Source: Aquifex sp.
Lineage (GTDB): Bacteria; Aquificota; Aquificia; Aquificales; Aquificaceae
Direction of reading: 5' to 3'
NCBI GenBank assembly: GCA_003978875.1
Contig: QNXQ01000121.1
Coordinates: 1 to 45,521 of the forward strand
DNA length: 45,521 nucleotides
Translations under genes and position numbers: made by a program
Notes under the pieces: model-generated
The model's input: only the letters and a program-made list of their open reading frames with translations
Database searches by the model: none
What the model was told of the DNA's origin: nothing
Part shown: piece by piece, positions 20,824 through 31,436 of the stretch
How positions within the stretch are numbered: position 1 is the stretch's first letter
Layout: each line of letters opens with the position of its first letter

Positions 20824-21813
20824 TTCCTTTTCCCAGTAATAAAAATCCGGTGAAAATAGTTTTACCCTTTTCTTTTTGAATTCCCTTATTGAAAAGAGAA
20901 CCCTGTAATCCTTAATACCGAGTCTTTCGGAGTTTTCCTTACAAAATTCGTAAACCTCCTCCTTTTTCTTGCCGTGAATCATTGTAAACAGGTTATAAGG
21001 CCAGAACTCATTCGTTGTTCTTTGATAACAATGGGAAACGGCTTTATATCCGGCAAAGAATTTACCAACCTCATCAATTCTTTCTTTGTCTACTCTCCAA
21101 ACCCCCATACCATTTGCCTTAAATCCCATTTTTCTGTGGAAAAGAATGGAGGAAAACCGTCTCAAAACTCCTTTTTTCTTTAAGTTTTTTAAACCTTCAA
21201 GAACTTCCTTTTCAGATACGCCGAGTTTTTCCGAAATTACCTCAAAGGGTTTTTCAACGAGAGGTAAATCTTCCTGGGTTTCCCTTATAAGCGCCTTTTC
21301 AAAATCGGTAATATGTATCTTTTCTTCCCTCTCGGATTTAGGTTCTGGAATATTATCTTCTCTGTCCAACAGAGAATCAAAGTTAAGCCTTACACCGATT
21401 TTAAACGTTTTAACCGTTTTAAGGATTACGTACTCTTTTACATCGTTTCTTTCAGCCATCACTTTTACAAGTTCTTCCAACCCCAAATGTGCATCAGGTG
21501 GAACGGCTAAGGTAAACCAAAGGTTGAATTCATCTTCCCTTTCATAGTTATGACTCACTCCCGGACAAGAGCCTACAAAATTGGCAACTTCTTCAATCCT
21601 TTCTGGAGGAACTTTAAACGCTACAAGGGAACTTTCATATCCTGCCTTTCTTGTATCGTATATGGGAGAAATTTGACGAACTATTTTCTGCTCTTTTAAC
21701 TTTTTTAGTTCCCTTATCACATCCCTTTCGGAAATATTTAATCTATCCGCTATATACTTAAAGGGTCTTTCCGTTAAAGGAATATCCTCCTGGATTATTT
21801 TTAATAACTCCAT
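20794..21813 (-). CDS. nirDL: Fused siroheme decarboxylase NirDL (AhbA/AhbB-like, two Lrp/AsnC-like modules)
   Basis: Two PL..RPF/KPF repeats, GVSHNYER...FNLWFT and VSHCYQR...WPYNLFTMIH. Confidence 0.88.
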   Translation of the reverse strand: MELLKIIQEDIPLTERPFKYIADRLNISERDVIRELKKLKEQKIVRQISPIYDTRKAGYESSLVAFKVPPERIEEVANFVGSCPGVSHNYEREDEFNLWFTLAVPPDAHLGLEELVKVMAERNDVKEYVILKTVKTFKIGVRLNFDSLLDREDNIPEPKSEREEKIHITDFEKALIRETQEDLPLVEKPFEVISEKLGVSEKEVLEGLKNLKKKGVLRRFSSILFHRKMGFKANGMGVWRVDKERIDEVGKFFAGYKAVSHCYQRTTNEFWPYNLFTMIHGKKKEEVYEFCKENSERLGIKDYRVLFSIREFKKKRVKLFSPDFYYWEKELLKPSFSSL

Positions 21814-22564
21814 TAAAGCCTACCCCCTTGAAGGTTTCGTTAAAATTCTTCAAAAGGTTATGAAGCTCTACCACTCTACCCACAACCATTACGGCGGGAG
21901 GATGGACTTCGGGAGGGTTTTCTGCCACTTCGTAAAGGGTGGATAAGATTACTTTTTGTTCTTCAGTCGTTCCCTTTTCTATAAAAGCTACAGGTTCAAA
22001 AGGATTTCTGCTGGCTTCGATGAGTTCTCTTGCTATTCTCTGTCTATTTTTTACACCCATCAACACTACCAGAGTGTCTACATCTTTAAAGGCTTTCCAG
22101 TCCACATATTTGCTTTTTCCTACCATCTCATGGCCTGTTACCACCGCAAAAGAGGAAGATATTCCCCTGAAGGTTAAAGGAATTGACGCGTACTCGGGAA
22201 CAGCGTAAAAGGAGCTAATTCCGGGAATAAGCTCGTAAGGAATACCGTTTTGTTCTAAAAATAGGGCTTCTTCCCCTCCTCTCCCGAATATAAACGGGTC
22301 TCCTCCCTTTAGTCTTACCACCGTTTTGTAGATTTTTGCGTAAAAAAGTAATAGCTTGTTAATCTCCTCTTGTGGAATGGTGTGTTTTCCATCCTCTTTT
22401 CCCACGTAAATGAGTTTGCAACCTGTCTTTCTGAGATTTAGTATTTCGTCGTTTATCAACCTGTCGTAGAGAATCACATCCGCCTCTTTTAGTATCCTGT
22501 AAGCTTTGAGGGTAAGGAGTTCTGGGTCTCCGGGTCCAGCTCCCACAATGTAAACCTTTCCCAT
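21758..22564 (-). CDS. nirE: Uroporphyrinogen-III C-methyltransferase (SUMT) for heme d1
   Basis: VGAGPGDPELLT, VRLKGGDPFIFGRGGEE, PGISS, VTGH; nir context. Confidence 0.9.
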   Translation of the reverse strand: MGKVYIVGAGPGDPELLTLKAYRILKEADVILYDRLINDEILNLRKTGCKLIYVGKEDGKHTIPQEEINKLLLFYAKIYKTVVRLKGGDPFIFGRGGEEALFLEQNGIPYELIPGISSFYAVPEYASIPLTFRGISSSFAVVTGHEMVGKSKYVDWKAFKDVDTLVVLMGVKNRQRIARELIEASRNPFEPVAFIEKGTTEEQKVILSTLYEVAENPPEVHPPAVMVVGRVVELHNLLKNFNETFKGVGFNGVIKNNPGGYSFNGKTL

Positions 22565-22600
22565 AACTACTTACCTCCTGCAAACAGTTGGCGTTTTTGA

Positions 22601-22628
22601 TTGCAAAGTTTATCAAAAGTGTTAAAAT
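22601..22628 (+). promoter_or_regulatory. Putative antisense promoter for candidate ncRNA
   Basis: TTGCAA 22601-22606, 16 bp, TAAAAT 22623-22628 with extended -10 TG at 22620-22621. Confidence 0.5.
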
Positions 22629-22635
22629 AATATAC

Positions 22636-22815
22636 AGAAGGTCTTGACAGAGACCTCAGCCCCGCGGAGTTAGACTTTGGATTTAGCCCGAAGAAGCCCG
22701 AAATGGGTGGAGGGTACAAAGGTATCTCCCGAGTTCCCGCTTCTTGCGGGAATAGGGAGTAGTAGTTCCTACCCCTTGTGTAGGGGTAGCGAAGGACACC
22801 TCGTGGGAAGGTGTG
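22636..22815 (+). ncRNA. Candidate unknown structured RNA, antisense within nir operon
   Basis: ~55% GC (94/170 counted over 22641-22810) between AT-rich flanks; about six consecutive hairpins; G-U pairs favour the + strand; upstream promoter. Confidence 0.55.
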
Positions 22816-22835
22816 AGTATTGTTTATAATTGACA

Positions 22836-23903
22836 TCATCTGCTTGCCTCCCACGGGTGTCCATAAATAAACACACCCGAAGGTGTGGGTACTTTGAATT
22901 CTTTCAATACCTTAAGGTCGGGAACGGATACTTTTTTTACTTTGTTCTCAAAATACGAGGACACGTAAATAAACTTTCCGTCAGAGGTAAAGCGGTAATG
23001 GAGTATTCTCTTTCCTAAAGGTTTTGTGTTTAATACCTTTTCACTTTCTAAATCCACTATAGTCAGGAAATCCTCTGAATCTCCGCTATAATTAACGGCC
23101 AAGTATCTACCGTCCGGAGATACCTGAACAAATACAGGCAGCCCTTTTACTTCTATGCTTCTCAAATAAGACATATTTTCAATGTCAACTACGTGAATCT
23201 TTCTTTCTCCAACCGCAGGTATGTAGGCGATTTTTCCCTTGATTCCCCAAAACCCGAAGTGAGGTATTTTAAAGACAACTTCTCCTTTTCCTTTTCTTTT
23301 AAATATTACTTTTTTATAAGTGAGACTTTTAAGGTCAATTATTCCTACACCGGATTCCCTGAAAAAACCAACTATATACTTATCTTTGTAAAGAAGGGCA
23401 TCGAAAGGCATCCTTCCTACATTGAGTTCTTTAATCAGATTTCCTTTCTCACAGTCCCTTATTTCTATCTTTTTCTTGTCCATCAGAGCGTATATAAAAA
23501 CTTCCCCATTTGACTTTATTCCAACATTTCTCGATTCAGTATTTATTTCCCTTAGAACATCTAAATTCTCATTTACAAGCACTACATTTTTAGGAGCATA
23601 GTTGGCTATAAGGATTTTGTTGTTGCAAAAGTTTATACCTATCGTACTGCTGCCGACTTTTACTTTTTTAAGGAGAACTTCCCTTTCAGGGTCTATCTTT
23701 GACAGGTATCCGTCCCTGCTTATCAGATATGCATATCCCTTAAAGAACTTAAGTGTTGCATGGTTAAGATTTCCCAGATTTTCAATCTCTTTTTTAACCT
23801 TATCCTTATCTATGACCGCAAGCTTTCCTGTTTCCCTTTCAACTACAAAAACCTTTCCAAAAGAAACACTTATGAAAATCAGGAGTACTACTAAAGATAA
23901 CAT
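22836..23903 (-). CDS. nirF: Heme d1 biosynthesis periplasmic beta-propeller protein NirF
   Basis: VVERETG, HATLKF, ISRDG, SRNVG, PFDAL, KIPHFGFW, PSGVF. Confidence 0.88.
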   Translation of the reverse strand: MLSLVVLLIFISVSFGKVFVVERETGKLAVIDKDKVKKEIENLGNLNHATLKFFKGYAYLISRDGYLSKIDPEREVLLKKVKVGSSTIGINFCNNKILIANYAPKNVVLVNENLDVLREINTESRNVGIKSNGEVFIYALMDKKKIEIRDCEKGNLIKELNVGRMPFDALLYKDKYIVGFFRESGVGIIDLKSLTYKKVIFKRKGKGEVVFKIPHFGFWGIKGKIAYIPAVGERKIHVVDIENMSYLRSIEVKGLPVFVQVSPDGRYLAVNYSGDSEDFLTIVDLESEKVLNTKPLGKRILHYRFTSDGKFIYVSSYFENKVKKVSVPDLKVLKEFKVPTPSGVFIYGHPWEASR

Positions 23904-24982: not shown

Positions 24983-25462
24983 TTACCACTCCGCTTTTAC
25001 TTGACATATTCCTTCTCCCATAGCGTTGCACTTTATCTCCGAAACCCTTATTCTTCTTCCGAAAAATTCTTCCAGAACGCCTCCTATGAAACCCGCTTCA
25101 AAATGGCATACCCTCCTCCCTATATTCGGCATCCCTGCACAGGTTATACATTCATCGAGAGAAACTATTAGCTCTTTCTCCCCTAAATGTTCGGGAAGTA
25201 AAATGCCTATCTTCTCGTTTTTTACGAAGTATGCAATGTCATCCAAGAAGCTTTCAAGACCTCCCTTTTCAAAATTCTTAGCTACGGCTTTCCCGAGCTC
25301 CCTTCCCGCATTTTGAAGTAATGCCAGTGTTCCTTTGTTTCCCAACGTTTCCTCGAGATACATTTCTGTAAACAGTCTGAAAGCCCTAAATATTACTACT
25401 GGAACACTATCTCCAAGTATTGGTCTGTTTACTTTAGAAATTTGCTCAATCAATCCATCCAT
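24983..25462 (-). CDS. Stand-alone V4R-domain protein
   Basis: AGRELG, ECITC, CHFEAGFIGG, EIKCNAMGEGIC. Confidence 0.85.
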   Translation of the reverse strand: MDGLIEQISKVNRPILGDSVPVVIFRAFRLFTEMYLEETLGNKGTLALLQNAGRELGKAVAKNFEKGGLESFLDDIAYFVKNEKIGILLPEHLGEKELIVSLDECITCAGMPNIGRRVCHFEAGFIGGVLEEFFGRRIRVSEIKCNAMGEGICQVKAEW

Positions 25463-28883: not shown

Positions 28884-29321
28884 CTAGCCTTGGCTTGCAG
28901 GATAGAGATGCTTTTCCTCCACACCCATTAGTTCCAGTATCGAAGTGTTTTTGAAAAAGTTAACTATTGAAGCCTTTAACTCTTCCCATTTGTGATGAAC
29001 CACACAAGGATTTGTTGAAAATTCACTACATTTGTGAGGCATTAAAATACACATCTCGTATTTATAGTCTTCACCGAAGACCTTTATAACATCCCATATG
29101 GTGATATCCTCAGGATTTTTAGTAAGGGTGAAACCTCCTCTTGGCCCCTTTACGGAGTGAACCAATCCCCTTTTTGAAAGCTCGTGCATTACCTTCGCTA
29201 AAAATGGTCTTGGAATGTTATGGGTTTTGGCTATTTCCTCCACTTTTACTAACCTATCCCTATTCAAAGCTAAGTAAGCCAATGCTATAAGAGCATACCT
29301 TACTGTGTCAGAGAATATCAT
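28884..29321 (-). CDS. Rrf2-family Fe-S transcriptional regulator
   Basis: RYAL, wHTH with SVKGPRGGF, C-x6-C-x7-C-x2-H. Confidence 0.92.
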   Translation of the reverse strand: MIFSDTVRYALIALAYLALNRDRLVKVEEIAKTHNIPRPFLAKVMHELSKRGLVHSVKGPRGGFTLTKNPEDITIWDVIKVFGEDYKYEMCILMPHKCSEFSTNPCVVHHKWEELKASIVNFFKNTSILELMGVEEKHLYPASQG

Positions 29322-30845: not shown

Positions 30846-31436
30846 ATGAAGAAAACCCTTACAGGGGTTATAGAAAGTTATCTTGAAAACGAGGAGCTGG
30901 CAAGACACAATGCCAACTACGTTTACTCACTTCCGGCTCTTGCCAATATCCTTTCGGGAGAAGCTATGAAGGAGTATATGTTGAAGAAAATCCTATCTCC
31001 CGAGGAGAGGTTAATGCACGAAGAGGGATGGTGGTATCAGCATCAACTATCGGTTTTAGGCCCTTACTGTATAGGTTTTTCTGCTAAAGATATAGCCACT
31101 TGGGGTTTACGTTCAAACAGTAAGGTAATGCCTACATCCAGACCTCCCAAGAATTTAAGAACACTTATTGACCAGTGCGCCAATTTTATATGTTTGATTT
31201 CTCAAGAAGTAGCCGGAGCAGTAGCTCTAAATGATTTAATTACCATAGCAGCTTCTTACCTCTGGTATGAAGAAACAGTTAAAGGGAGAAAGTATACTGA
31301 AAAGGAACTTTTTAAAATATTCCAGAGCTTCTTCTACAATATCAACGCAATAAGGGAGTTTACGAAGAATTTAAAGTCTCCCTGGCAATTAAACGACTTT
31401 TACGAAGTTCCTGATTGCCCCTTTAACCTGAGATAA
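30846..31436 (+). pseudogene. nrdD: Truncated class III (anaerobic) ribonucleotide reductase, N-terminal fragment
   Basis: NAN, H..G..Y.H, PYC, PPK, SQEVAGAVA, QSFFYNIN motifs, then loss of similarity at ~31345; no glycyl-radical C-terminus. Confidence 0.8.

Follow-up and report, generated by a model that had tools for sequence, protein, structure and literature searches.

The window analysed here, a 45,521-bp stretch of one contig from an Aquifex sp. genome (G000), carries a nir gene cluster in which the nirE/cobA gene and a nirF-like gene are separated by 271 bp (Table 1). The original prediction placed in this gap a novel structured RNA that would be transcribed from its own promoter and, in the headline reading, regulate heme d1 synthesis, and many of its physical premises were borne out. 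The length of the gap was confirmed, its core is GC-rich (GC 0.54-0.57 vs. 0.38 genome-wide), and 22620-22830 folds more strongly on the plus strand (z -4.4) than on the minus strand (z -3.5). The native fold of the gap beat 200 of 200 shuffles on both strands, with a larger margin on the plus strand, and for 22636-22862 the plus-strand z was -5.9. A TTGCAA-16-TAAAAT promoter-like site is present at the proposed place (2 sites found, 0.5 expected), and the helices at 22639-22656, 22696-22708, 22726-22759 and 22769-22789 form fully in four to five of five copies of the stretch. The GGTAC/GTATC helix held in part, with four of its five pairs in three of the five copies. Similarly, the ACACCT/AGGTGT hairpin can pair in all five copies, but it competes with the far stronger stem at 22794-22862 (-8.0 vs. 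-32.8 kcal/mol), and the pseudoknot drawn from its loop requires the weaker hairpin and hence conflicts with this right-end stem, whose base is conserved across the clade. The Rfam search, RAGATH-18 included, gave five weak hits on the stretch, all below the gathering score, and the 95-aa and 85-aa open reading frames over it had no NCBIfam match. Elsewhere in the window, the nir cluster includes a gene for a V4R-domain protein (24983-25462, minus strand), flanked by nirN-like and nirJ genes, an Rrf2 regulator is encoded upstream at 28884-29321, and the plus strand at 30846-31436 encodes a 196-aa fragment that matches only the N-terminal part of the anaerobic ribonucleotide reductase NrdD.

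Table 1. Features at the nirF-nirE junction (positions within the window)
Feature	Position	Strand	Remark
nirE/cobA, uroporphyrinogen-III C-methyltransferase	21758-22564	-	Its Shine-Dalgarno sequence is the target of the element
Target motif CCTCC (predicted TAM); last two bases, CC core	22574-22578	+	Empty sites; 33/36 left ends
Whole element, almost certainly non-autonomous and of the IS607 family; 284 bp including the right-hand CC core	22579-22862	+	Empty-site joint and copies
Left end	22579-22600	+	Similar to that of the tnpA+tnpB element on G000:C90
Sigma-70-like promoter (predicted)	22601-22628	+	Similar -35/-10 placement in L011, L012, L022 and L031
First hairpin, remnant of tnpB codons R-G-L-F-R-D; likely 5' element of the omegaRNA	22639-22656	+	Locked synonymous codons
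Middle module, replacing about 45 tnpB codons	22658-22715	+	Absent in L190, partly absent in L012
Small hairpin of middle module	22658-22671	+	
Stem with asymmetric purine loop, middle module	22686-22715	+	
Conserved core of the putative omegaRNA	22722-22793	+	Stem 22726-22759, hairpin 22769-22789; invariant GTAT, TAGTA and GCGAA motifs
Right-end long hairpin	22794-22862	+	Base conserved across the clade
Predicted guide, host flank antisense to nirF 3' end	22863-22878	+	Position follows right end
nirF-like cytochrome d1 domain gene	22836-23903	-	C-terminus FIYGHPWEASR here, FIYGGK in empty allele

The stretch is not unique but repeated: seven strong matches at 94-100% identity were found in the same genome. 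Two of these are partial and lie at the starts of contigs C93 and C107, where they overlap by 115 bases, so that six or seven loci are represented; four intact copies are identical at 265-273 of 284 positions, and the copy on C91 has lost its right end. Alignment of the copies with their flanks revealed that the shared unit extends beyond 22830, the end originally given, to 22862. Homologues at 71-81% identity were present in G002, G073 and G130; of the 178 genomes from the phylum, nine, counting G000, had matches at E<=0.001, several of them weak. No end-to-end inverted repeat was found among the 15 inverted-repeat pairs examined.

Empty sites delimit the unit. In X2, an independent run from a study separate from that of the best-matching run, a 2.5-kb contig joins 22575 to 22860 and skips 284 bases, with three letters (TCC) that fit either side, an overlap that suits a 2-bp or a 3-bp core equally. 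The nirF-nirE junction is likewise empty in three congeners, G002, G004 and G006 (of nine loci found, three others that were compared have a different upstream gene); in these alleles GGAGG precedes the nirE ATG, and nirF ends in FIYGGK (G002) or FIYGGE (G006), the G004 copy being frame-shifted nearby. A second site, beside tyrS, is filled in G000 and G002, cleanly empty in G003 and divergent in four other genomes. These empty sites therefore indicate insertion into CCTCC without duplication beyond the core; for the C17 copy, no empty-site joint was found in the run contigs. The same element lies beside unrelated genes, and it is no part of the nitrite-reductase operon and very probably no nir regulator; the headline reading of the original prediction is not supported.

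The copies that fill the tyrS-side site (G000:C6:22265-22553 and L012 on G002:C297) are only about 71% alike, whereas the G000 copy is 93-94% like its own paralogues, and either independent insertion or replacement by conversion may account for this. At the nir locus, the right end of the element supplies the last codons and the stop of nirF on the minus strand. Through three private changes at 22836-22862, the window copy has ASR in this tail instead of the consensus VSK, the stop being unchanged, whether by chance or by host selection, and another change, G22668A, breaks one pair of the small hairpin.

The kinship of the element is seen in its ends. Contig C90 of G000 carries a matching left end followed by a 214-aa IS607 transposase, which scores 186 bits against NF033518 (cut-off 110) and has ISC1926 TnpA as its best PDB match, and by a tnpB truncated after 182 aa where the contig stops; no intact tnpB was found among the assembled G000 contigs, nor was the 3' module of the C90 element itself. 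ATCA-containing repeats, seen by eye in the C90 left end, are not clearly repeated in the mini element. In addition, G001 contains an element that has tnpB alone (above the NF040570 cut-off) and ends of this kind, and a search with its TnpB gave matches in 34 of 178 genomes. A close group among them shares the left-end motif and a 3' module that ends in a long hairpin and follows tnpB in many relatives. Within this group tnpA is present in L041, L043, L045, L054, L079, L083, L112 and L219, and the right end of the element matches those of L041, L043, L083, L112 and L219. A match to the end of an insertion sequence, which the original prediction had said would make the RNA not novel, was thus found, and its secondary guess of an orphan RNA of mobile-element origin, such as an omega-RNA-like scaffold or MITE, was right and can now be made precise. 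The 5'-module pattern occurred in no stretch of the metagenome contigs, and two viral scans returned six loci each, one of which (L196) resembles the element.

Two other origins were rejected. For a bridge RNA of IS110/IS1111, the PF01548 match was below cut-off and in an unrelated open reading frame, and PF02371 gave none; for an IS200/IS605 (PATE) origin, PF01797 was not found in G000 (89.5% complete), and the parents carry a serine TnpA.

Further repeats were noticed in G000. A sister TnpB element whose scaffold is related is represented by five right ends, each with T behind it, at the ends of C35, C43, C52, C63 and C86, its body being unassembled. Ends of further IS families are collapsed at contig breaks (C75, C91 (5'), C26, C189, C167 and C62), and the C75/C91 end, which has a run of G in front of it and continues into a reading frame of MerR type, is like canonical IS607. 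Thirteen ends of one inverted-repeat IS lie at TA-rich sites (C25, C31, C32, C51, C64, C81, C84, C88, C119, C160, C191 and C217), and the 5' ends of C95 and C97 bear tandem palindromic 17-bp repeats, iteron- or operator-like. C205 (L026) is a high-GC contig with an archaeal-looking resolvase and is possibly a binning contaminant.

In the coding relatives L155 and L168 the 3' module consists of the last tnpB codons, which overlap the omegaRNA core, and the mini element still reads KVSPEFP in frame. Among 22 tnpB sequences under 95% identity, the R-G-L-F-R-D stretch that forms the first hairpin is locked at synonymous positions (GGT in 21/22, CTT in 22/22, GAC in 21/22) and the hairpin is complete in 19, whereas control codons nearby vary, with Asp split 11/11 and Leu in four codons. 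Judged by sequence, the first hairpin and the 3' half thus descend from the tnpB 3' end and represent the omegaRNA scaffold and right end. No coding parent carrying the middle module was found. The asymmetric purine loop in the stem of this module (22686-22715) may be kink-turn-like, and the RNA may also contain a loop-E-like motif.

Covariation was assessed in 30 3' modules below 93% identity, L092 having been dropped from the 31 candidates; the underlying pattern search gave 154 hits, 61 with a right-end-like ending, four of which were dropped as chance. Across these homologues 89.5% of 759 cells pair, and three helices covary on the plus strand. Pairing is complete (100%) in helices 1 and 3, where 5/5 and 5/6 pairs show double changes, and the base of the right-end stem (seven base pairs) is paired in 208/210 cells, while the distal seven pairs of this stem are poorly aligned (4-19 of 30 unpaired) and have no such backing. 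One-sided changes comprise 23 G-U vs. 2 C-A cells, and the structure is thereby assigned to the plus strand; the covariation and binomial statistics are inflated by related sequences, and the shuffle controls ignore kinship. A model built from this alignment found in G000 the seven copies and four weaker right ends of the sister family. On the relatives, Rfam gave seven hits, and the sole one that passed is a tRNA adjoining the L190 element.

Gene-less elements that keep the left end, the first hairpin and the 3' module exist in divergent forms, namely the window family, L101, L190 and L214/L223, and these probably arose separately, since their middles are unlike. In L190 (169-401), the minimal gene-less element, the first hairpin is fused directly to the core, and only 5 nt separate the right end of the element from a tRNA gene; L101 (1212-1530, minus strand) carries a further GC-rich structured stretch of about 100 nt in front of its first hairpin. 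L031, L092, L209, L212 and L224 are plain internal deletions in which the first hairpin or the core is lost, so minis also persist without the full scaffold.

Of the 36 curated left ends, 33 have CCTCC in front of them; the 57 right ends that were scored all close with GTCC, but this ending was itself a selection filter. On the minus strand of the window, the motif is the GGAGG Shine-Dalgarno sequence 9 nt before the nirE ATG. A start codon lies 4-12 nt after the opposite-strand GGAGG at 21 of 34 independent sites (two duplicates dropped), compared with 486 of 3458 GGAGG sites (14%) in G000, the one genome from which the background was drawn under the same rule; a looser rule gave 24/34 vs. 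585/3458, and in G000 alone 4/7 ends satisfied it. Since CCTCC reads as the Shine-Dalgarno GGAGG on the opposite strand, surviving copies lie at ribosome-binding sites and leave them intact, although such an enrichment could also result if insertions within genes were selected against. CCTCC followed by 8-12 guide bases had no hit in G000 for any of five guides, where few were expected by chance.

Taken together, the copies, the IS607-like ends, the tnpB-derived scaffold and the covariation point to a non-autonomous IS607 derivative with a stand-alone omegaRNA. That the element is such a derivative is almost certain, and that it encodes a working stand-alone omegaRNA is fairly probable. The best explanation of the locus as a whole, which we consider probable, is a 284-bp gene-less IS607 derivative that sits at the nirE ribosome-binding site with both ends kept and likely transcribes a stand-alone omegaRNA for TnpB supplied in trans. 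We propose that the serine transposase of a full-size element, such as the one on C90, would move the mini by crossover at the CC core behind CCTCC; scarless excision and insertion by serine TnpA at a 2-bp core would follow the known IS607 cycle (PMC6188088; 10.1101/2023.11.20.567912). The RNA would start near 22635 and comprise about 230 nt plus a flank of about 16 nt, a guide length taken from known TnpB systems (PMC13565253). TnpB loaded with this omegaRNA would then cut the empty site left by excision, and repair from a filled sister chromosome would restore the element. The downstream gene would keep its ribosome-binding site, because CCTCC is a Shine-Dalgarno sequence read backwards, and the upstream gene would gain only a short new tail. 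In RNA run X17, from the same sample as X1, four contigs lie on the element and five on contig C17, yet they differ from the window and extend into other loci, and the start of one of them, 22586, is upstream of that predicted for the RNA; in X1 DNA the element is far deeper than its flanks.

Three other readings have to be weighed. The element might be a passive remnant, a MITE moved by TnpA with an inherited structure that TnpB no longer loads, as suggested by the minis without first hairpin or core, the lack of an intact tnpB in the G000 assembly and the private changes of the window copy. However, even copies with no more than 71-80% identity (G002, G073) retain the promoter placement, the first hairpin and the core, a structured middle module has been gained, and several divergent minis retain the same two modules, which makes this reading rather unlikely. 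It is quite improbable that the RNA guides a TnpB which binds as a repressor without cutting: the guides point to the empty site of each element itself, and in 17 TnpB rows the RuvC-I Asp is kept in 16 and the RuvC-III Asp in all 17. That reading draws on the absence of the canonical RuvC-II glutamate, whose position reads P or S, and of Cas12f-type zinc-finger cysteines, but a candidate replacement Glu stands before a YTS/WTS motif in 11 of the 17 rows, and rearranged sites are described as predicted active in PMC10691335.

The idea that a host antisense or processing RNA, or an exapted copy of the element, regulates heme d1 synthesis is very improbable in view of the junctions that are empty in the three congeners and in run X2 and of the same element at unrelated loci. 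It draws on a convergent promoter inside the operon, on the complementarity of the RNA 3' end to the nirF tail, and on a terminator-like hairpin on the minus strand at 22657-22638, owing to which incidental polarity on nirE is possible.

The preferred reading, an IS607 derivative with a stand-alone omegaRNA, has several parallels. The IS607 family (IS607, IS1535, ISC1926; PMC6188088) resembles the parents in its serine transposase with a MerR-type HTH and its tnpB, and the element in having neither terminal inverted repeats nor target duplication beyond the 2-bp core; it differs in its GG core with G-rich sequence upstream, whereas here the core is CC in the tnpA/tnpB direction behind CCTCC, with GG on the opposite strand, and the window copy has no genes. 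The RAGATH-18 reRNA of the ISFba1 IS607 TnpB (PMC11061315) has a structured right-end scaffold of about 190-230 nt followed by a flank-derived guide, as here, and the TAMs known there, AGGAG and GAGGG, are also Shine-Dalgarno-like; our element has no Rfam RAGATH-18 hit, its scaffold overlaps tnpB, and the motif has the reverse polarity. From IS200/IS605, stand-alone omegaRNAs and PATE-like elements have been described (PMC10691335; 10.1101/2023.03.14.532601), likewise mobile units without genes that retain the ends and the omegaRNA and take proteins in trans, but they derive from Y1-transposase elements, while the ends here are of IS607 type. CboIStron (10.1101/2023.11.20.567912) is also an IS607 element in which the TnpA target is the TnpB TAM, the scaffold ends in the core dinucleotide and the cost to the host is mitigated; in our case the Rfam search gave no group I intron match, and what limits this cost seems to be insertion at ribosome-binding sites and not splicing.

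The element is thus of an already known kind, a non-autonomous IS607 derivative with a stand-alone omegaRNA, and what differs is its CC core and CCTCC motif, which depart from the rule stated in a review (PMC13565253) that the integration of IS607 is strictly confined to GG preceded by G-rich sequence. In the literature covered, which lies outside ISfinder, subscription journals and supplements, neither a published TnpB with CCTCC nor an IS607 TnpB from Aquifex was found, and papers on IS607 insertion at Shine-Dalgarno sequences, stand-alone guide RNAs of IS607 TnpB and IS607 MITEs apparently include none that describes the clade; the supplementary tables of PMC10691335 and PMC4227106, beyond that scope, could list the clade or the RNA.

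A false novel nir regulator is hereby removed and replaced by a testable system. There is an even chance, in our view, that this system represents an undescribed IS607 clade of vent thermophiles with reversed core polarity, in which TnpA inserts and TnpB cuts behind CCTCC and which parks at intact ribosome-binding sites, and that promoter-driven, TnpB-borrowing, guide-only minis arose in it more than once, with the scaffold of L190, about 150 nt long, as the minimal one for a heat-stable, zinc-finger-less nuclease with a C-rich TAM. If true, this would overturn the rule of IS607 integration at GG behind G-rich sequence, add a safe-harbour strategy based on Shine-Dalgarno sequences, extend stand-alone omegaRNAs to IS607, supply an RNA family missing from Rfam, and draw attention to a TnpB from thermophiles whose TAM is predicted to be CCTCC.
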